Origin: Aquifex aeolicus VF5
Lineage (GTDB): Bacteria > Aquificota > Aquificia > Aquificales > Aquificaceae
Direction of reading: 5' to 3'
Assembly: GCF_000008625.1 (NCBI RefSeq)
Contig: NC_000918.1
Span: 690,001 to 722,000 of the forward strand
Length of the DNA: 32,000 nt
The position numbers were made by a program, and so were the translations under genes. The notes under the pieces were generated by a model, which searched no databases, was not told the DNA's origin, and worked only from the letters and a program-made list of their open reading frames with translations. This document shows positions 11,440 through 19,959 of the stretch, one piece after another (within the stretch, counting starts at the first letter, position 1; the number at the start of each line of letters is the position of its first letter).

Positions 11440-12180
11440 TTAAACTCCCGACCCCGCTATGTGCCTCCCACCGTCCACGCAGATTATTTCTCCGGTGATA
11501 CTTTCCGTTTCCAAAAGAAGGAGCGTTGTGCTTACCACGTCTTTAACGGAAACTTCCCTTCTCAGGGGCGTTCTCGCGAGTATCTTTTTCCACTCCTCCT
11601 CCGAGTAGTTTTCCGCCTTCATCACGGGACCGGGAGCAACGCAATTCACGAGAACGTGAGGTGCAAACTCCTTTGCCAGAACCTTTACCGCTGTGTGAAG
11701 GGCTCCTTTGGCGATAAAGTAAGCACTGAAACCCTTATAAGGGGATATGTTTGTAGCCCAATCGCCGAAGGCAACTATCCTTCCCTTTACGTTTCCTTCA
11801 TTTTTGAGCATAACTTTATAACACTCCACAGAGATAAAGAAGAAAGCTTCCGCTATGGGTATGAAGTGATAGTAAAGATCCTCCCGCGTTGTTTCTGTGA
11901 GCTCTTTTCTCTCATAGGGTGAGGCGAGGTGAACGAAGGCGTCTATCCTGCCGAACTCCTCGTAAGTTCCTTTTACAAGTTTTTCATAGTCCCCGTACGC
12001 GCACAGATCTGCCCGAAATCCCTTTACCTTAACTCCTTTTCCCTTTGCATACTCGGTCAGTTCCTCCACCGCTTCTCTGCTTGACCTGTATACGACGCTC
12101 AGGGAATAACCTTTATCTATCAAAGCTTTAGCAACTTCCTTTCCTATCCTCCTTACACCTGTGATTAAGGCAACGTTCAT
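11440..12180 (-). CDS. Short-chain dehydrogenase/reductase (PTR1/FolM-like glycine motif)
   Basis: The ORF track gives 11440..12204. MNVALITGVRRIGKEV starts at the ATG at 12178-12180, which is the more likely start. It has the Rossmann motif TGxxRRIG and catalytic YxxxK (YFIAK). Confidence 0.8.
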   Translation of the reverse strand: MNVALITGVRRIGKEVAKALIDKGYSLSVVYRSSREAVEELTEYAKGKGVKVKGFRADLCAYGDYEKLVKGTYEEFGRIDAFVHLASPYERKELTETTREDLYYHFIPIAEAFFFISVECYKVMLKNEGNVKGRIVAFGDWATNISPYKGFSAYFIAKGALHTAVKVLAKEFAPHVLVNCVAPGPVMKAENYSEEEWKKILARTPLRREVSVKDVVSTTLLLLETESITGEIICVDGGRHIAGSGV

Positions 12181-12643
12181 GAAAGAAACTATAATATCTT
12201 CCATGGAGAAGTTTATTCAAAAATTTTTTGAAGAGCTTTACTTAATTCTTTTTGACTACGCTCTTAAGATAGCTCAAAATCCAATAGATGAGCTTTTAAT
12301 ATTTGGAAGTATAGCAATTGCCTACACGGTAATTTACATATCGGGTCTATTCTTTGCAAGAAAGATAAATCTACCCTACATAAGGAAAATCCTTGAAATA
12401 GGTATTAGCGTCATATTTTACTTCTTAGTTTCTCTTTTGGAAGGGAAATTCCCCCAGGTAGAAAGCCTGCTACTATTAAAAACGCTCTTTCTAGTTCAAA
12501 CAATTCGTGTATTCATCCTTTCCCTTGAGGCTTTTCAGGCTTTTGGATTTACTACCAAGCTTTTAATAAACATTTTTTCTATCCTCGGCGGTATTTCCTT
12601 TTTCATTATAAAACTGTCTCCCTTTACAAGAAGAAAAATATAA
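12161..12643 (+). CDS. Hypothetical integral membrane protein
   Basis: Multi-TM hydrophobic ORF directly upstream of the MscS gene. The start is uncertain: GTG 12161, ATG 12179 or ATG 12203. Confidence 0.5.
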   Translation: MIKATFMKETIISSMEKFIQKFFEELYLILFDYALKIAQNPIDELLIFGSIAIAYTVIYISGLFFARKINLPYIRKILEIGISVIFYFLVSLLEGKFPQVESLLLLKTLFLVQTIRVFILSLEAFQAFGFTTKLLINIFSILGGISFFIIKLSPFTRRKI

Positions 12644-12654
12644 AGTTTCTGCTA

Positions 12655-13965
12655 TTGAGTAAAACGTTTACGTTCCTCTACAAATTCTCTATTGCCCTGC
12701 TTTTGTGGATATTCTTAAGGACCCTTTTTAAAGTCGCGATTAAAAGGTTTAAAGGTAGCGGTTTTGAATCCGTGCTTAATTCCCTCTGGTTTGTTTTGAG
12801 TGCGTCTTACGTGGCGTTTACAGGCGCATGGATACTGAATCTCGTTAAGTTCTCCGTGGACTTTATAGTAGACGTTGCGGTATTTTTCGTAATTTTCTTG
12901 GTCTACGCTGCGGTATTCGGTTACTCGGTTTATCTGATAGGTAAATTCTTCGGCGACACGGACGGTTACGAGAATCTCCTGAAGAGCTTTAAAAAGTTCG
13001 CTTATATGTTTTCCATATACATACTCTACAAAAGCCTTATCTACTTGACGAACATTGAAGTCCTCGTAAAGAAGCTTGAAAGAATATACATACTTGAGAC
13101 GGAACTCGTTAAGATTTCTCTCTTTTCCTTTGTGGAAGGGATATACGTCTTCTTTGTTCTGAAGTACTTCTTTGAAACACTCGGAAACCTTTTCTACGTT
13201 GTGTATATGAAAAAGGACCAAGAAGTAGAAGCGGGTTCCTTTAGAACAATTACCGTAAACCTCGGTTTACTCCTTTCTCTCCTGATAGCGGGTGTGAGTA
13301 TAGGGATTACGTGGAAAGCTGCTGTTCCCATAGCGGGCGCCCTCGGCATAGGTTTGGGTTTTGGACTTCAGACCATTTTCAACAACTACGTCAGCGGGTT
13401 TATACTCCTCCTTAGCAAAAACATAAAAGTGGGTGATTACATAGAAATTGAAGGAAAGGCCGGCGCCGCTGTAGGAGCTGGAGGAGACACGATTTTCGGA
13501 AGAGTAGTCAGTATAAATATCCTTACAACCATTGTAAGGACTTGGGACAACGTGGAAGTCGCCATACCAAACTCCGAATTCCTGTCGAGCAAAATAGTCA
13601 ATTACTCTATGACTAACCCAATAGTGAGGGTCAGGATTCCCTTCGGAGTTGCTTACTCTTCGGACCCAGAAAAGGTAAGGGAAGTGCTAATAAGAGTGGC
13701 AAAGAGGATGCCCCACGTACTGCCATCTCCTGAACCGGACGTCTGGTTCCACGAAATGGGAGACAGTGCACTTATATTTATCCTGCTCGTATGGGTGGAC
13801 CTGAGGAGGTTAAGGCGACTGAAAGCTTTAAAGAGTTCCATTTATTATGAGGCGTGGAAGGAACTAAAAAAAGAGGGAATAGAAATACCGTTCCCGCAAA
13901 GGGACGTGTGGTTCAGGAACAAACTGAAGGTAGAGATAGAGAAAGACATCAAGCCCGAGCAGTGA
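12655..13965 (+). CDS. Mechanosensitive ion channel, MscS family
   Basis: 436 aa with a TTG start. N-terminal TM helices, then the MscS pore helix and beta domain (IFNNYVSGFILLLSKNIKVGDYIEIEG...V..I.....R..DN..V.IPNS). Confidence 0.85.
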   Translation: MSKTFTFLYKFSIALLLWIFLRTLFKVAIKRFKGSGFESVLNSLWFVLSASYVAFTGAWILNLVKFSVDFIVDVAVFFVIFLVYAAVFGYSVYLIGKFFGDTDGYENLLKSFKKFAYMFSIYILYKSLIYLTNIEVLVKKLERIYILETELVKISLFSFVEGIYVFFVLKYFFETLGNLFYVVYMKKDQEVEAGSFRTITVNLGLLLSLLIAGVSIGITWKAAVPIAGALGIGLGFGLQTIFNNYVSGFILLLSKNIKVGDYIEIEGKAGAAVGAGGDTIFGRVVSINILTTIVRTWDNVEVAIPNSEFLSSKIVNYSMTNPIVRVRIPFGVAYSSDPEKVREVLIRVAKRMPHVLPSPEPDVWFHEMGDSALIFILLVWVDLRRLRRLKALKSSIYYEAWKELKKEGIEIPFPQRDVWFRNKLKVEIEKDIKPEQ

Positions 13966-15178
13966 GCTCTTCTTCCTTTTCTACTTCTACGATAAGGTAA
14001 ACCTTGTCCCCTTCCCTTACCTTATCTACCGTTTTCAAACCTATAACGCTTCCCTTTTGAGCCACTTCGACAGGCTTTCCGTCTATTTGCATGCTTTCAA
14101 CTTTCTGCCTAACTACTCCCGTTTTCTTGCCTATTATGTGTATCGTGTCTCCGAGTCTCAGGTCTCCCGCTTCAAGTTTTACCTCTGCAACGCTTATCCT
14201 CGGGTAGAACTTCTGAACCTTTCCGACGTAAACCTTTTTCTCCTTAGCCACGCTCTCGTTAACGCCGAAGCTCGCCTTTCCGAAGTAAAAACCGCTGTCC
14301 CACTCCCTGTGGTAAACTCTGCTCACCATGTCTATGAGTTCCTGTCTGAGTTTCTCGTTAAAGCTTCCTTCAAGGAGGGCGTCCCTTGCGGTTCTGTAAG
14401 CTTTAGTAACCATGTAAACGTAGTCCGGATTTTTGCTCCTTCCCTCTATCTTCCACGCGTCTAAAAACATAAGGTGCTCTATTATGTCAAGGGTCATCAA
14501 ATCCCTTGCGGAAAGGACATAATCCTCTCCGAGAACGTACTCAGCACCTTTTGCGTTAGGATTGAGGTCTCTTATTACTACCTGAAACTCGTGCCTGCAC
14601 ACTTGATAACACTCTCCCCTGTTTCCGGACTTTTTGAATACTTCGTGACTTAGGAAACACCTTCCCGATATAGCCATACACATAGCACCGTGGACAAAAG
14701 CCTCAATTTCAAGGTTTGTGTTTCGCTTTAGCCTTTTTAATTGCTCGAGGTTTAACTCCTTTGCGGGGACAATCCTCTTTATCCCGAGGTTCTCAAAGAA
14801 CTTCGCACTTACCGAGTTCGCTATGCCCGTCATAACGGAAGCGTGAGTCTCTATTCCCATCTCAAGGGATTTGGTCATAACCGCAAAGTCCCAGGCTATT
14901 ACTGCGTCTATACCGCTCTCTTTTACTCTGTGGAGAACTTCCTCAACGTAGGGTATGTCCTCGTCAAAGACTATGGAGTTCAGGGTGAGGTAAGCCCTCG
15001 CTCCGTGCTCCGCACAAAACTCCTTTATCTCCCCAAGCTCATCCATGGAAAAGTTTTTCTTCAGGGAACGCTGGTTTAATTTATCAAGACCGAAGTAAAC
15101 CGCTTCCGCTCCGGCTTTCAAGGCTGCGGATAAGCCTTCCCAGTTTCCCGCGGGTGCCAAAATCTCAGGTTTTCTCAT
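13949..15178 (-). CDS. Peptidase U32 family protein
   Basis: 409 aa. MRKPEILAPAGNWEGLSAALKAGAEAVYFG is a typical U32 N-terminus, with the internal E..VHGAMC...SGRC motif. Confidence 0.9.
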   Translation of the reverse strand: MRKPEILAPAGNWEGLSAALKAGAEAVYFGLDKLNQRSLKKNFSMDELGEIKEFCAEHGARAYLTLNSIVFDEDIPYVEEVLHRVKESGIDAVIAWDFAVMTKSLEMGIETHASVMTGIANSVSAKFFENLGIKRIVPAKELNLEQLKRLKRNTNLEIEAFVHGAMCMAISGRCFLSHEVFKKSGNRGECYQVCRHEFQVVIRDLNPNAKGAEYVLGEDYVLSARDLMTLDIIEHLMFLDAWKIEGRSKNPDYVYMVTKAYRTARDALLEGSFNEKLRQELIDMVSRVYHREWDSGFYFGKASFGVNESVAKEKKVYVGKVQKFYPRISVAEVKLEAGDLRLGDTIHIIGKKTGVVRQKVESMQIDGKPVEVAQKGSVIGLKTVDKVREGDKVYLIVEVEKEEELTARA

Positions 15179-15208
15179 GGCACAAAATATTAAACTCTCT
15201 CAAAGCCC

Positions 15209-15236
15209 TTGACTATGATTAAATTTTAAGTAAAAT
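15209..15236 (+). promoter_or_regulatory. Candidate sigma70-type promoter of the toxin-antitoxin cassette
   Basis: TTGACT (15209-15214), a 16-nt spacer, then TAAAAT (15231-15236), about 20 nt upstream of the toxin GTG. Confidence 0.45.
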
Positions 15237-15252
15237 TTAACTTATAAGTTAA
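15237..15252. promoter_or_regulatory. Perfect 16-bp palindrome, candidate antitoxin operator
   Basis: TTAACTTATAAGTTAA is its own reverse complement. It sits between the -10 box and the toxin start, overlapping the expected transcription start. Confidence 0.45.
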
Positions 15253-15254
15253 AT

Positions 15255-15662
15255 GTGGATACGAAGAACTTTTACAGGTTGGATGATGGAAGCGGTAAGT
15301 ACGAGCTATGGATATGGAAAGGTTTCGATGAACAGTTTGAAAAAGTTACAAAGGGAGACACTAAAAGTCGGAAGAAAATTCTTACATGGATTGAAAGACT
15401 GTCACATGGAATTCCTACACAACCTGAAAAGGCAAAAGTGCTTAAGGGAAATGCGTGTAAAGGGTTATCAGGTCCAGTAATGGAGCTCAAACCTAAACCT
15501 TACAGAGTTTCATTTATTTGTTTGTGTAATAAGTACATCTTAGTAGGCACTATATGGAGGAAAAGAGCTAATTCAAGGGATAGTTCGGAAATAGACAAAG
15601 CTTGTAAATTGATGAAGGAACTTGTGGAGATGTTTTTAAAGGAGGCCGGTACATGCTGTTAA
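15255..15662 (+). CDS. HigB/RelE-superfamily toxin (Gp49-like)
   Basis: 135 aa with a GTG start. The segment ...VMELKPKPYRVSFICLCNKYILVGTIWRKRANSRDSSEIDKACKLMKEL matches the Gp49/HigB-like pattern (ELR...YRI.F......I.LL..F.KK......EI..A). It lies upstream of, and overlaps by 10 nt, an XRE-HTH gene. Confidence 0.7.
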   Translation: MDTKNFYRLDDGSGKYELWIWKGFDEQFEKVTKGDTKSRKKILTWIERLSHGIPTQPEKAKVLKGNACKGLSGPVMELKPKPYRVSFICLCNKYILVGTIWRKRANSRDSSEIDKACKLMKELVEMFLKEAGTCC

Positions 15663-16033
15663 GGACGTTGAAGAAAAACTTACAGGGTAACGCTGATTAC
15701 ATATACGAAAAATTGAAGTTTGATATTTCGGAAGAGCTTGCAAAACTTATGAAACAGAAAGGTATTACGAAGAAAGAATTGGCACATAGAATGGGCGTAT
15801 CACCTGCATACGTTACTAAAATATTTAGTGCGGAAAATATCTCACTTAAGGTTATAGCAAAGGTACTTTCCGCTTTGGAAGCAGATAATTACACCCTAAA
15901 GTTAATTCCTGAAGATAAAAGCTTACTAATAGATGAACTGGATAAATGGTACTATAGCTTTAAAAAGACTTACAGATATATACAACCAGAGGAGATAGAA
16001 AATGAAATTAAAGAAATCCCCACTGCAGCTTAA
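15653..16033 (+). CDS. HigA-like XRE-family HTH antitoxin with a C-terminal extension
   Basis: 126 aa. HTH segment GITKKELAHRMGVSPAYVTKIFSAENISLKVIAKVLSAL. SD AGGAGG about 7 nt upstream of the ATG. A roughly 40-aa aromatic-rich tail (LIDELDKWYYSFKKTYRYI...) follows the HTH domain. Confidence 0.8.
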   Translation: MLLRTLKKNLQGNADYIYEKLKFDISEELAKLMKQKGITKKELAHRMGVSPAYVTKIFSAENISLKVIAKVLSALEADNYTLKLIPEDKSLLIDELDKWYYSFKKTYRYIQPEEIENEIKEIPTAA

Positions 16034-16459
16034 AACTGTGAAAATAGTTCTTTTCACATAGATTGGGATTTAGAAAACATAAACGTAAGGGAAATTAACC
16101 CTCAAGAATACGTTGTTGATTTAGATTTTGATATATTTAGCGTTCAGGGGAAAAATACTTCCAATAATCTTTTTCTTATAGAGCTCCTTATAAAGATAAA
16201 TTATTCAAAAAGAAAAGAAAAGAAATTCCCTTTCAAAGCTAAGTTGAAGCTTAAAGCGTTATTTGATTTTATAGAAGATGTAGATGAAAGCAAAAAAACG
16301 CAGTATTTGTTATACAACGGCCTATCCATACTGTACAGTTTTGTGAGAGGGTATCTATTTGAAAAGCTCGATTTACTTGTTCCTGATCACAGGATAATTC
16401 CCACAGTAAACCTTTTAGATTTGATTCAGAAGAAGGCAAATGTAAAATCAAAATTATGA
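16002..16459 (+). pseudogene. SecB-like chaperone gene interrupted by a 1-nt frameshift (third gene of the TA cassette)
   Basis: ATG at 16002 with SD GGAG 7 nt upstream gives MKLKKSPLQLKTVKIVLFT, then TAG at 16059. The frame shifted by -1 is open from 16034 to 16459: ..FHIDWDLENINVREINPQEYVVDLDFDIFSVQGKNTSNNLFLIELLIKINY...FKAKLKLKALFDFIEDVDESKKTQYLLYNGLSILYSFVRGYLFEKLDLLVPDHRIIPTVNLLDLIQK. This aligns by eye along E. coli SecB (..EV..GGIF.I......L...CPNILFPYARE.I......G.FP.L.L.PVNF..LF). The track only shows a 71-aa tail from 16244. Confidence 0.65.
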
Positions 16460-17454
16460 AAAAAATTCTTCTCTCTCACGGAGGAGGCGGTGAAGAAACG
16501 CAGAAACTTATAAAGAACCTCTTTTTAAAGTACTTTTCAAACGAAATTTTAAACAAACTTGAAGACGCCTCACTCCTTAATCTGAGCGGTAAGGTTGCCT
16601 TCACAACGGATGCCTTCACGGTTTCACCGATATTTTTCAGGGGAGGGGATATCGGAAAACTGGCCGTTGCCGGGACTGTAAACGACCTTTCGGTTATGGG
16701 CGCAAGGCCTAAATATCTTTCCGTTTCCTTCGTAATAGAGGAAGGTCTCTCCTTTGAAGAACTTGAAGAGGTAGTAAAGAGTATGGCACAAGAAGCGTCA
16801 AAGACGGGCGTTCAGATAGTAGCGGGGGACACGAAGGTAGTTCCCAAAGGGCAGGCGGACAAGTTGTTCATTTCCGCGTCCGGAATAGGAGAAGTCGTTT
16901 ACGAAGGGCTTTCCGCCCACAACTTGAGAGAGGGAAACGTGATAATAGTTTCGGGAAGCGTGGGAGACCACGGAGCTTGTATCCTGGCACAGAGAGAAGG
17001 TATGGAGTTTGAAGTTCCCGTGGAGAGCGATTGTAAGAGTTTGTGGAACATGATTGAAAAGGTTTTGAGTAGCGGTGCTGAAGTTCACGCCATCAGGGAC
17101 GCAACGAGAGGCGGACTTGCAGGTGTTCTGAACGAGTGGGCAGAGCAATCAAAGGTAACCATAGAAGTTGAAGAGGAAAAGATTCCCGTAAAAGAAGCCG
17201 TGAGGGGACTTTGTGAACTCCTCGGATTTGAACCGACTCACCTCGCAAACGAGGGAATGGCAGTATTTGCAGTGGCATCCCAAGACGCCCAAAAGGTTTT
17301 AGAAATCCTTCGCTCCACTCCCGAAGGCAAGGAAGCCCAGATTATAGGAAAGGTGGTTAAAAAGGGAGAGCCGAAGGTAATACTTAGCACTCCTTACGGA
17401 GTAAAGAGGGTTATGGAACCGCCGGCGGGAGAACTCCTTCCGAGGATTTGCTAA
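16456..17454 (+). CDS. hypE: Hydrogenase maturation protein HypE
   Basis: 332 aa. MKKILLSHGGGG..., AIR-synthase-like fold, and the C-terminal PRIC motif. The start overlaps the preceding stop (ATGA). Confidence 0.95.
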   Translation: MKKILLSHGGGGEETQKLIKNLFLKYFSNEILNKLEDASLLNLSGKVAFTTDAFTVSPIFFRGGDIGKLAVAGTVNDLSVMGARPKYLSVSFVIEEGLSFEELEEVVKSMAQEASKTGVQIVAGDTKVVPKGQADKLFISASGIGEVVYEGLSAHNLREGNVIIVSGSVGDHGACILAQREGMEFEVPVESDCKSLWNMIEKVLSSGAEVHAIRDATRGGLAGVLNEWAEQSKVTIEVEEEKIPVKEAVRGLCELLGFEPTHLANEGMAVFAVASQDAQKVLEILRSTPEGKEAQIIGKVVKKGEPKVILSTPYGVKRVMEPPAGELLPRIC

Positions 17455-17801
17455 TGCACGAGTTTTCAATAGTTCAGAGTCTTCTCACACTGATAGAAGA
17501 TTACGCAAGGGAGAACAACGCAAAAAGCGTTACGAAGGTCGTTGTAAGTATAGGCGTCCTTTCTGGCGTAGAACCGCACCTTCTTGAGATGGCTTTCAAC
17601 ACCTTTAAAGAAGGAACGGTTGCTGAAAAGGCGGAGCTTATTATGGAAATAGAGAAGTTGAAGATAAAGTGTATGGACTGCGGGAAAGAGAGCGAAAAGG
17701 AAGAACTGAATATGCTCTGCCCCGGGTGCGGTTCCCTGAACACTCAGATAATAAGCGGGCAGGACATGTTTTTAAAGAGTTTGGAATTAGAAGTTGATTG
17801 A
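17454..17801 (+). CDS. hypA: Hydrogenase nickel incorporation protein HypA
   Basis: MHEFSIVQSLL N-terminus and two CxxC pairs (CMDCG, CPGCG). The ATG at 17454 overlaps the hypE TAA (TAATG). The track start at 17448 adds 2 residues. Confidence 0.92.
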   Translation: MHEFSIVQSLLTLIEDYARENNAKSVTKVVVSIGVLSGVEPHLLEMAFNTFKEGTVAEKAELIMEIEKLKIKCMDCGKESEKEELNMLCPGCGSLNTQIISGQDMFLKSLELEVD

Positions 17802-18835
17802 TGTTAATTTTACTGGACACAGGTATTCACGAAGTTGCATTCTTTACAAAATACGAAAATTACACGCTCTGCACCGTTGGGAGGAGGGAAAACTCAAAGG
17901 AAGAGGCACTACTCGGCTACAATTTGAGGTTCTTTACCTTCGGGAATTCCTCTTATTCTTACACGGTAGAGACCGTAAAAAGAAAATGTCTTGCGGGAGT
18001 AGTTACTAAAGGGAATATAAACCTCGTGCTTTACACGGGAAATGGAATACAAAATGTTTACGAGTTTTCTTCAAACGGAGAACTTATGCTGTGGCAACTG
18101 CTAAAAACGGAAAAGGGTTACTTTTTGGTCGGCGGTGTGAAGCGAAACAACTGGGACGCCTTCGTAGCATTTCTTGACAGGAACTTTAAGGTTAAGTGGA
18201 AGAAAAGGCTTGACTTTTTGGAGGAGTACTTTTACTCGGTTGCCGAGAAAGGGAACAAAGTTTACGCGGTAGGGAGAATAAAGAGGGGGAAAAACTGGGA
18301 TGCCCTCGTTTGCATCTTTTCGGATAACGGAAAACTTCTGGAGAGTTATTCAATAGGTTCTGAGGGGAAGGACTACTTCAGGTTTGTAAAAAATTTAGGC
18401 GGAGAAGTAATAGCCGTAGGAAGGAGCGAGGATAAGTTCGGAGACAGCGATTTTTTAATTTACGACTTTAAAAATTACTACCTCTACGACTCGGGGGAGT
18501 ACGATTACGCAAGGGCTGTAAACTCCTACGGAAACAGCTACGTGATTGCGGGTGAAACGAGGTTTAAGGGAAATAACGACGGGATTTTTATTCTTCTCAG
18601 CAAAAACTTCAGACCTGTTAGGGCATTTAAAATCGGCTGGGAAAACACGGATGCGGTACGCTTTATGGACAACCTGTTTTTCACAGGATACACTTACTCC
18701 CTTTCCTTTTCCGCGGACCTGATTTTGGGAGTGTTTTCAGAAGATTTTGAAAAGGTTGATGTAAAAAAGGTAAATAGAGTTCTTAAAAAGGAAAAAGTTC
18801 ACTTGAGAGACTTCCTTTCAAGCTCCTGCGTTTAA
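17801..18835 (+). CDS. Hypothetical protein with about 7 degenerate 45-aa repeats (SBBP-like beta-propeller pattern)
   Basis: Recurrent units such as YFLVGGVKRNNWDAFVAFLDRNFKVKWKK, VYAVGRIKRGKNWDALVCIFSDNGKLLESY, VIAVGRSEDKFGDSDFLIYDF and VIAGETRFKGNNDGIFILLSKNFRPV. No signal peptide. The ATG overlaps the hypA TGA (TGATG). Confidence 0.6.
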   Translation: MLILLDTGIHEVAFFTKYENYTLCTVGRRENSKEEALLGYNLRFFTFGNSSYSYTVETVKRKCLAGVVTKGNINLVLYTGNGIQNVYEFSSNGELMLWQLLKTEKGYFLVGGVKRNNWDAFVAFLDRNFKVKWKKRLDFLEEYFYSVAEKGNKVYAVGRIKRGKNWDALVCIFSDNGKLLESYSIGSEGKDYFRFVKNLGGEVIAVGRSEDKFGDSDFLIYDFKNYYLYDSGEYDYARAVNSYGNSYVIAGETRFKGNNDGIFILLSKNFRPVRAFKIGWENTDAVRFMDNLFFTGYTYSLSFSADLILGVFSEDFEKVDVKKVNRVLKKEKVHLRDFLSSSCV

Positions 18836-19945
18836 GATGAGGCTTTCGCCTTTTCAAGCGTATCCTTTACTTCTTTCCTTACCTCTCCTCCTCTCCAGGG
18901 GTCCTTTAGGGTTTCGAGCATGTACGAGCGGTCCACCTCGTCGTCAAACTCTTCAAAGTCTATACTCTTTAAAAGCTCTTTTGCTTTATTGTTTAGCTTT
19001 TCCGGCACTTCCCTTCCCGAAAGCTCGCACCAGATTAGGGTCCATGCCCTTGCGAGGGCGTAAGGATGGTATCCGCCTCCTCCGAGGTATACTCCCTCCC
19101 CGAAAACCTCACGAACGATGTTGAAAGCTTTTAAAAAGGCAACGTTTGAGAGGTTGAACTTGGAAAGGTAATCTTCAAGGAGTGGGTCAGTTCCGAGTTG
19201 AAGAAGGTAAACCTCGGGCTCAAATACTTCTTTGACTATTTCCAGAGATTTTTCTAGGGCAAAGAGGAACTCGTTGTCGTTCAAGCCCTTTGGCAGGGGA
19301 ATGTTCAGGTTGTAGCCCTTTCCTTTTCCTTCTCCTATCTCCTCCAGGAAGCCCTTCTCAAAGGGAAAGGCGTACTCGGGCGACTGGTGAAGGGACAGGA
19401 CGAACACCTGGTCTGTATCGTAAAAGGCTTCCTGAACACCGTCGCAGTGGTGGGCATCAAGGTCTATGTAGAGTATTCTCTTAAAGCCTTTTTTTCTCAA
19501 GTACTCAATTCCCACAGCGGGGTCGTTTATGTAGCAAAAGCCGTTTGCCCTGCTTTTAAAAGCGTGGTGCATACCTCCCGCGGGATTGAAAGCTACATTT
19601 CCCTTTAAAAATTCCTCTATCGCCTGCACTGTTGAACCCGTTGCGAGAGAAGAGCCTGTAAACATCGCGTAAGATACGGGGTTTTCGTATCCGCCTATGT
19701 TGTACTTTTCCCTAGCTCCCTTCGGAACGCACTGACACCTTTCCGCTTCCATTAAAGTGTTTATGTAGTCTTCCGTGTGGAATAAAAGGAGTTCTTCTTT
19801 AGTTGCGGGTCTGCTCTTGATTAATTCCTTCTCATCTATAAGGTTCATGGCATCTAAAAACCTAAGGAGTAGGGAAACTCTTGGTATTTTAAGAGGATGG
19901 TTTTTGGGATATCTGTACTTTCCGTAGTCTAAAGTTCCGATAAGT

Positions 19946-19959
<14 letters not shown>
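18832..19959 (-). CDS. acuC: Histone deacetylase-like / acetoin utilization (AcuC) family zinc deacetylase
   Basis: 375 aa. Class I HDAC fold signatures GGMHHA, DLDAHHCDG and GGGGY. I recall a 375-aa A. aeolicus HDAC homologue (HDLP) of the same length and family, and this may be it; not verified here. Confidence 0.93.

Follow-up and report, generated by a model that had tools for sequence, protein, structure and literature searches.

A Degenerate HigBA-SecB-Type Toxin-Antitoxin-Chaperone Cassette Predicted in the Hyperthermophile Aquifex aeolicus VF5

Introduction

A 32,000-nucleotide (nt) stretch of the Aquifex aeolicus VF5 genome (NC_000918.1, positions 690,001 to 722,000; hereafter the window, with all positions counted from its first letter) very probably carries a horizontally acquired toxin-antitoxin-chaperone (TAC) cassette of the HigBA-SecB type that has decayed in this strain. 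The cassette occupies 15209-16459 and consists of a single promoter-like site, a palindromic candidate operator and three overlapping genes on the plus strand. These genes lie in the order toxin, antitoxin, SecB-like gene, are all co-oriented and are tightly linked, the toxin and antitoxin open reading frames (ORFs) overlapping by 10 nt and the antitoxin and chaperone ORFs by 32 nt. A family profile and Foldseek place the third protein in the SecB family and assign it the SecB fold, and the antitoxin bears an extension without counterpart in chaperone-less homologues, although the sample compared is small and its members are related. What VF5 lacks is a full set of intact genes, because a frameshift interrupts the third one.

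TAC systems are established in Mycobacterium tuberculosis, where they are tied to the stress response, and in Escherichia coli, where they are tied to phage defense. The Aquifex cassette is an added example of this known system in a heat-loving host, and it introduces no new kind of system and no new mechanism. In the TAC literature searched, which did not extend to the supplementary table of the survey by Sala et al., Aquifex is not mentioned and no text carries the locus names; nor does the searched literature describe such a system for Aquificota or for any hyperthermophile.

An initial annotation, made from the letters of the window alone, had read the cassette as a Gp49/HigB-like toxin of the RelE superfamily (15255-15662), an antitoxin with an XRE-type helix-turn-helix (HTH) domain (15653-16033) and a frameshifted SecB-like gene (16002-16459), arranged as in the M. 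tuberculosis TAC, and had suggested that the antitoxin tail might be a chaperone-addiction segment. The analysis described below bears out the three genes, their order and the family of each, and agrees with the suggested role of the tail. The frameshift is likewise present as described; it does not, however, appear to be an error in need of correction, since the same deletion recurs in a second assembly.

The SecB-Like Third Gene

The third gene (16002-16459, plus strand) has a GAGGAG Shine-Dalgarno sequence at 15989-15994, 7 nt ahead of its ATG at 16002. From this start codon it reads MKLKKSPLQLKTVKI and is truncated after 19 codons by a premature TAG at 16059-16061, while the body of the chaperone is open in the -1 frame, without internal stops, from 16049 to a TGA at 16457-16459. 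Compared with an intact allele, VF5 is without one A between 16047 and 16048 (ATA G-T TCT in VF5, ATA GAT TCT in the intact allele). The intact allele, P0001, encodes 152 amino acids (aa) and is located on a contig (L001, Logan ERR15087784) that is 99.93% identical to the window.

The SecB assignment is carried by the wider family and by predicted structure. An exhaustive profile search returned 438 relatives of the chaperone at E<=0.001, and among the 79 that were aligned, 47 match Pfam SecB unaided, the best at 5.5e-12. The profile built from these 79 sequences gives full-length matches to SecB of Haemophilus influenzae (1FX3, E=7e-11) and of E. coli (2e-7). For P0001, AlphaFold2 gives a model with a predicted local distance difference test score (pLDDT) of 78 and a predicted template modeling score (pTM) of 0.74, in which four strands lead into a long helix and then a short one. 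In Foldseek, the best match of this model is 5MTW, the structure of Rv1957 of M. tuberculosis with a peptide from the chaperone-addiction (ChAD) segment of HigA1 (E=4.6e-7, probability 1.00), with SecB structures 1OZB, 1FX3 and 1QYN next, SecB likewise being matched at probability 1.00. The chaperone is also matched by the PADLOC models PD-T4-9_C (7e-8, residues 26-145) and PDC-M64C (4e-8), and it matches the PADLOC chaperone model better than Pfam SecB or NCBIfam SecB, the latter giving only a weak match below its cutoff (E=0.003). PD-T4-9 is presumably the system that was later named CmdTAC. Taken together, these profile and model comparisons support the third gene as encoding a SecB-like chaperone that is predicted to be structurally closest to the M. 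tuberculosis TAC chaperone.

The housekeeping SecB proteins of Proteobacteria (1QYN, 1FX3, 1OZB) share the four-strand, two-helix fold, and homology to them is recovered through the family profile. A housekeeping secB, which encodes a SecA-binding export chaperone, would be expected as a solitary gene in a conserved context. Unlike it, the Aquifex-type gene is always linked to a toxin-antitoxin (TA) pair, is mobile and found in varying contexts, scores below the Pfam and NCBIfam cutoffs, and is dispensable, being an apparent pseudogene in VF5. A housekeeping role was rejected on this genomic context.

The Antitoxin Tail and Its Coupling to the Chaperone

The antitoxin gene (15653-16033, plus strand) encodes 126 aa, divided into a short N-terminal segment, the XRE-HTH domain (15737-15877) and a C-terminal tail. 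Some 38 aa in length (residues 88-126, 15914-16030, DKSLLIDELDKWYYSFKKTYRYIQPEEIENEIKEIPTAA), this tail carries the sequence LIDELDKWYYSFKKTYRYIQPEE, contains an aromatic WYY patch and ends in Ala-Ala. As published, a ChAD is an extension that has no counterpart in two-gene homologues and can be transferred as a module (PMC5105189). The tail is consistent with this definition and is thus a candidate ChAD segment, as the comparison of related loci indicates.

Ten distinct related loci were compared, six with the tail and four without it. In all six tail-bearing types (the window, L002, L005, L006-9, L010 and L017-19) a SecB-like gene comes next, and the 32-nt overlap between antitoxin and chaperone genes is conserved in L002, L005, L006-9, L010 and L017-19. 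The third genes of the L010 and L017 types match the family profile at 7e-40 and 1e-36, respectively. In the four tail-less types, whose antitoxin C-termini are either short or unrelated (L011-13, L015/16, L020 and L014), a SecB-like gene is found in none (Fisher p=0.005, uncorrected for relatedness). The clearest single case is given by two syntenic loci, L017 and L020, which are 85% identical in the toxin and HTH portions and 87% identical in a downstream phosphatase-like gene; between these, L017 has 481 bp comprising the tail and the chaperone, and L020 has 75 bp in its place. The tail and the chaperone thus appear to be gained and lost together, which is the strongest evidence that the cassette is a TAC.

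This coupling also bears on the alternative possibility that the locus is an ordinary two-gene HigBA pair, the SecB-like gene being a neighbor with a separate role in general or export chaperoning and the tail being unrelated to it. Two-gene versions with the same operator do exist (L011-13, L015/16 and L020), and VF5 apparently tolerates the loss of the chaperone with its toxin intact, both as expected of a pair that has no need of a third gene. Against this reading, the SecB-like gene in every case shares 32 nt with the antitoxin gene and moves with the cassette into unrelated contexts, it is present or absent together with the tail even where both are removed in one block (L017/L020), its nearest structure is the TA-dedicated Rv1957, and it scores higher against the PADLOC chaperone model than against the SecB models of Pfam and NCBIfam. 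We therefore regard a plain HigBA pair as very unlikely and retain the TAC as the preferred reading.

Among the six tail-bearing types, the C-terminus of the tail is Ala-Ala in five and Ala-Gly in the sixth. In M. tuberculosis, HigA1 has a Val-Ala ClpX degron within its ChAD (PMC8165232), and by analogy the Ala-Ala end might serve as a degron of the ClpX type.

The Toxin and the HTH Domain of the Antitoxin

The first gene, aq_1017 (15255-15662, plus strand; O67130, WP_010880631.1), starts with GTG, encodes 135 aa and carries the public label 'hypothetical protein'. There is no obvious Shine-Dalgarno sequence before its GTG. The AlphaFold2 model of the toxin (pLDDT 87.5) has a RelE-type fold, with the order beta-alpha-alpha-beta-beta-beta and a C-terminal helix. 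Its best Foldseek match is HigB of Streptococcus pneumoniae (6AF4/6AF3; E=5e-4, probability 1.00, 23-26% identity), followed by HigB2 of Vibrio cholerae (8A0X/5JA8) and RelE of Methanocaldococcus jannaschii (3BPQ), with probabilities of 0.99-1.00 over the listed structures. Foldseek against viral structures gave mostly unnamed proteins and was uninformative. A family profile of 10 toxin sequences matches HigB 6AF3 in the PDB at E=0.008, and Gp49 is the top Pfam family for every close toxin homologue scanned (best E=1e-4, 22.7 bits). NCBIfam has no model matching the toxin, and PADLOC likewise returned no match for it.

Catalytic residues are conserved as well. In the hidden Markov model alignment, E77, K79, R84, W101 and K103 of the toxin fall on E66, R68, R73, F90 and K92 of S. 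pneumoniae HigB, and all five are invariant in the 10 homologues. The S. pneumoniae residues have in turn been equated with the catalytic set E66, R68, R77, F93 and K95 of the M. tuberculosis TAC toxin (PMC9098466). The product of aq_1017 is thus predicted to be a HigB/Gp49-type toxin of RelE fold, presumed to be a ribosome-dependent mRNA endonuclease.

Translation of the antitoxin is preceded by an AAGGAGG Shine-Dalgarno sequence (15639-15645) ahead of the ATG at 15653, an arrangement common to all homologous cassettes. The antitoxin (O67131, AAC07091.1; publicly labeled 'HTH domain-containing protein' and 'helix-turn-helix domain-containing protein [Aquifex aeolicus]') matches Pfam HTH_3 at E=1.9e-10 over residues 29-75, with 41 bits against a cutoff of 23, and HTH_26 at E=1.4e-8. 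The PADLOC models PDC-M64B/C match it at about 1e-7. The NCBIfam HigA equivalog TIGR02607 does not match (E=0.16), and the antitoxin is therefore not an orthologue of canonical HigA.

Points That Weigh Against the Assignment

Several observations weigh against reading the cassette as a TAC. Scanned as a single sequence, the toxin has Gp49 (PF05973) as its top Pfam match only below threshold (E=0.002, 18.6 bits against a gathering cutoff of 23.9), and the chaperone likewise falls short of Pfam SecB (E=7e-4, 19.9 bits against a cutoff of 26). The alignments behind both AlphaFold2 models are shallow, with 10 sequences for the toxin, for which only two of the five models are confident, and four for P0001. 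A chaperone profile limited to four sequences gave no matches in the PDB, and a single-sequence phmmer search of the PDB gave chance-level matches only. With profiles and predicted structures taken into account, both resemblances exceed chance, and it is these comparisons that settle the toxin and chaperone assignments.

The tail is subject to similar caution, in that its association with the chaperone comes from 10 related loci only. Furthermore, the Ala-Ala codons sit in the 32-nt overlap with the conserved N-terminus of the chaperone (MKxKxSxLQL), so that the conservation of Ala-Ala may stem from the chaperone frame.

A further objection comes from VF5 itself, in which the toxin and the tail-bearing antitoxin are intact and the chaperone is dead, a state that would be harmful if addiction were strict. 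From this it follows that either addiction is leaky or the toxin is silenced. Loss of the chaperone in M. tuberculosis reportedly leaves cells viable but slow-growing (PMC3581621), and the state of VF5 is therefore not impossible under a TAC model.

The Chaperone Lesion and Its Alleles in Near-Identical Genomes

The chaperone gene of VF5 appears to be a pseudogene, so the VF5 copy of the cassette appears to be a degenerate, decaying TAC. The frameshift was first suspected to be a sequencing error, in which case the 1998 Sanger sequence would conceal an intact VF5 TAC. The pattern of differences from L001 is indeed error-like, since the window carries four single-base deletions relative to that 99.93%-identical contig, among them the one that breaks the SecB-like gene and one that splits a gene of the MscS channel family. 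The error hypothesis was largely rejected once a contig (L024; Logan SRR29904085, assembled de novo, 27 kb) proved to share 100% identity with the window across 8,381 bp, a span that takes in both the 16047 deletion and the split channel gene; this assembly counts as independent evidence only if the SRR29904085 reads were not simulated from the reference. A further dataset, SRR29904083, has the same upstream gene calls, namely the split channel gene and an intact 135-aa toxin, in a listing that does not include the chaperone region. As for L001, it also differs from the window by 4 substitutions and therefore represents a different strain. We thus consider a sequencing error unlikely and a genuine deletion in VF5 the preferred explanation.

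The near-identical genomes together display three allelic states. VF5 is chaperone-dead. L001 (ERR15087784) is toxin-dead, as its chaperone is intact and a T corresponding to window position 15521 has been lost (L001 position 5520), which cuts the toxin to 95 aa. The third state, intact at both lesion sites, is found in L025 (SRR22575695) within its 900 bp; its sole difference from the window is an extra A at the chaperone lesion, and it contains the toxin, undamaged from residue 13 on, together with an undamaged start of the chaperone that covers the first 62 codons.

If these states are real and stable, one conceivable consequence, which we regard as rather unlikely, is that chaperone addiction in this hyperthermophilic TAC is conditional and not obligatory. 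Under such conditional addiction, the tail might not be destabilizing at 85-95 C, a substitute chaperone might act in place of the lost one, or the chaperone might still be made through recoding or as an antitoxin-SecB read-through fusion. If conditional addiction were true, the three natural alleles would form a genetic series for studying the decay of a TAC and the contribution of the chaperone in vivo.

The last of these options amounts to an explanation of the lesion in its own right, in which the broken chaperone would still be produced, either by a -1 ribosomal or transcriptional slip at about 16040-16058 or by read-through of the antitoxin TAA at 16031-16033. Such recoding would account for the tolerated intact toxin. 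Short runs of A and T are present in the region (GTGAAAATAGTTCTTTTC), and the deletion has brought the SecB body (from 16049) into the antitoxin frame, with a single TAA between them, so that read-through would yield an antitoxin-SecB fusion. The sequence nonetheless offers neither a slippery heptamer of the canonical X XXY YYZ form nor a stimulatory structure. Set beside intact alleles, the lesion is simply the loss of one base that is not part of a homopolymer; programmed frameshifting was rejected because of the missing slippery site and the plain deletion. A read-through fusion would in addition be missing the greater part of strand beta-1, the element through which subunits of the SecB type dimerize (PMC6377645). 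Continued production of the chaperone is thus extremely improbable, and simple loss of the gene remains the reading favored here.

Promoter and Candidate Operator

The cassette is preceded by a sigma-70-like promoter site at 15209-15236 on the plus strand, with a TTGACT -35 hexamer (15209-15214), a 16-nt spacer and a TAAAAT -10 hexamer (15231-15236). This is the best promoter-like site in 15000-16700, with 10 of 12 consensus positions, and is a consensus match only; 6 such sites were found in this region, compared with 4.6 expected (shuffle mean), so their overall number is not above chance. In L005, a homologous cassette, the equivalent place is occupied by TTGACA and GATAAT with 17 nt between them.

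Directly after the -10 hexamer, between it and the start codon of the toxin, follows a perfect 20-bp palindrome (ATTTAACTTATAAGTTAAAT, 15235-15254) that ends at the toxin GTG. Its 16-bp core occurs once in the window, where 0.07 matches with <=2 mismatches are expected by chance. The exact core is found in five cassette types (L001, L002/3, L005, L011-13 and L021), at or just upstream of the toxin gene start, and the toxins of these five types are only 57-70% identical; among them, L011-13 is chaperone-less. More distant cassettes have symmetric half-site variants, as in L007, where both half-sites are changed and the result is again a perfect palindrome (ATTTCACTTATAAGTGAAAT). A second inverted repeat at 15219-15240, with 10-nt arms (TTAAATTTTA and TAAAATTTAA) that are 100% complementary across a 2-nt gap, overlaps the -10 hexamer and has the TTAAAT half-site in common with the main palindrome. 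We infer from this arrangement that the palindrome is a putative operator bound by the dimeric HTH antitoxin, and the symmetric variants fit a dimer site.

In some cassettes the operator is situated within the annotated toxin ORF, and in VF5 it immediately precedes the GTG. Several annotated toxin homologues (P0008-P0013; L002 1780-1810) have NLTYKLN at their N-terminus, which is the translated operator palindrome TTAACTTATAAGTTAA.

Proposed Mechanism and Comparison With Known Systems

The mechanism proposed for the intact cassette is modeled on known TACs (PMC5105189; PMC6377645; PMC9098466; PMC8165232), with the steps assigned to operon, toxin, antitoxin, tail and chaperone drawn from homology, anatomy and comparative genomics. 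A single sigma-70-type promoter would drive all three genes, and a dimer of the HTH antitoxin would repress transcription at the 20-bp palindrome. Free aq_1017 toxin would enter the ribosomal A site, cleave mRNA and halt translation, unless the antitoxin binds and neutralizes it. The tail of the antitoxin, through its aromatic patch and Ala-Ala end, would make the antitoxin unstable or degradable unless chaperone-bound, and the SecB-like chaperone, presumably a tetramer, would bind the tail and keep the antitoxin functional. Titration of the chaperone, whether by stress-unfolded proteins or by a phage protein, would then release the toxin. In the VF5 lineage, the 1-nt deletion would have made the chaperone a pseudogene and left a decaying TAC, the sequence differences in this step being directly observed.

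The closest known parallel is the HigB1 (Rv1955)-HigA1 (Rv1956)-Rv1957 system of M. tuberculosis, which has the same operon order and likewise combines a Gp49/HigB toxin of RelE fold, an XRE-HTH antitoxin and a SecB-fold chaperone. The antitoxin extensions both contain aromatic residues and both terminate in small hydrophobic residues (Val-Ala in HigA1, Ala-Ala in Aquifex), and the absence of the TAC extension from chaperone-less homologues (PMC5105189) is repeated in the Aquifex-type family. The two systems differ in several respects. The chaperones are only 16-19% identical in a structural alignment, and the tail is about 38 aa with WYY in Aquifex compared with 45 aa with WHRLSSYR in M. tuberculosis. 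The 32-nt overlap of antitoxin and chaperone genes, the hyperthermophilic host and the frameshifted chaperone of VF5 also set the Aquifex cassette apart.

The HigBAC system of E. coli NT1F31 has the same HigB-HigA-SecB-like architecture; it is prophage-borne and defends against phage lambda. Its chaperone recognizes an aromatic pattern in the antitoxin ChAD (bioRxiv 10.1101/2024.02.24.581848). The ChAD of NT1F31 is longer, at 96 aa, and lies in a prophage defense locus whose trigger is the tail protein gpV, whereas no prophage context is found in the Aquifex window. The logic of a chaperone-stabilized antitoxin is also shared by CmdTAC / PD-T4-9 (PMC11618068), and the Aquifex chaperone matches PD-T4-9_C; the CmdTAC toxin, however, is an mRNA ADP-ribosyltransferase, while the Aquifex toxin is a predicted RelE-fold RNase. 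Among two-gene systems, S. pneumoniae HigBA (6AF3/6AF4) and gp49-gp48 of phage N15 resemble the Aquifex cassette in their toxin-first order and XRE-HTH antitoxin, and S. pneumoniae HigB is the best structural and profile match to the Aquifex toxin, with aligned catalytic residues. Neither pair has a third gene or a tail, whereas the Aquifex-type family occurs in both two-gene and three-gene forms.

The current picture of TAC function is left unchanged by this cassette, which is of interest for its hyperthermophilic host and for the natural series of alleles. Reading it as a TAC gives names to two uncharacterized VF5 proteins (O67130 and O67131) and reveals an unannotated SecB-like pseudogene. 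The family, though small, offers matched chaperone-plus and chaperone-less versions together with a conserved operator, and thermostable pairs of TA-associated SecB (SecB-TA) and ChAD could aid structural work. The toxin-dead and chaperone-dead natural alleles represent two routes of TA decay.

Distribution and Genomic Contexts

The subfamily is rare and is found in Aquifex spp. and hydrothermal-vent metagenomes. A scan of genome contigs returned two loci, one from an Aquifex sp. metagenome-assembled genome (MAG) and one from a vent MAG, and did not return VF5 itself, adding little on distribution. The cassette is found in at least five unrelated genomic contexts. Within the window, its GC content of 31-37% stands against 45-50% in the flanks, and Rfam and tRNA scans of the whole window found no RNA gene and no tRNA integration site.

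In the Aquifex sp. MAG locus L005 (7271-7963), a helper gene of the IstB/IS21 type is located two genes from the cassette, which fits mobility. Chaperone-less relatives (L014 2-2689; L015 852-1709) lie between a type I restriction-modification Methylase_S gene (E=7e-11) and a gene for an HsdR-type R subunit (HSDR_N, E=3e-31); a defense role of the family is hinted at by this location in a type I restriction-modification locus. A contig that bears the label 'Gammaproteobacteria bacterium MAG 128' (GTDB or NCBI) holds the most divergent of the three-gene cassettes (L022 / L008).

Neighboring Genes

The cassette is flanked on one side by a minus-strand U32 peptidase gene (13949-15178) and on the other by hypE (16456-17454). 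The stop codon of the SecB-like gene and the start codon of hypE share the sequence ATGA (16456-16459), and hypA follows at 17448. As the cassette directly abuts the hyp genes, transcription from its promoter may run on into hypE-hypA, and the frameshift in the chaperone gene could alter translational coupling to them.

Further upstream, the MscS-family channel gene (12161-13965) is split into ORFs of 160 aa and 436 aa by a 1-nt deletion at 12615. The same gene is intact in L001, where it encodes 587 aa, and L024 has the same split as the window; the channel gene is therefore probably a real pseudogene in VF5. The remaining two 1-nt deletions relative to L001, at 18809 and 18840, are 31 bp apart and fall at the junction where a 345-aa ORF (17798-18835) meets, 3' end to 3' end, a minus-strand gene of the histone-deacetylase family (18832-19959). 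Both C-termini are altered by these deletions, the proteins being 345 versus 346 aa and 375 versus 380 aa long.

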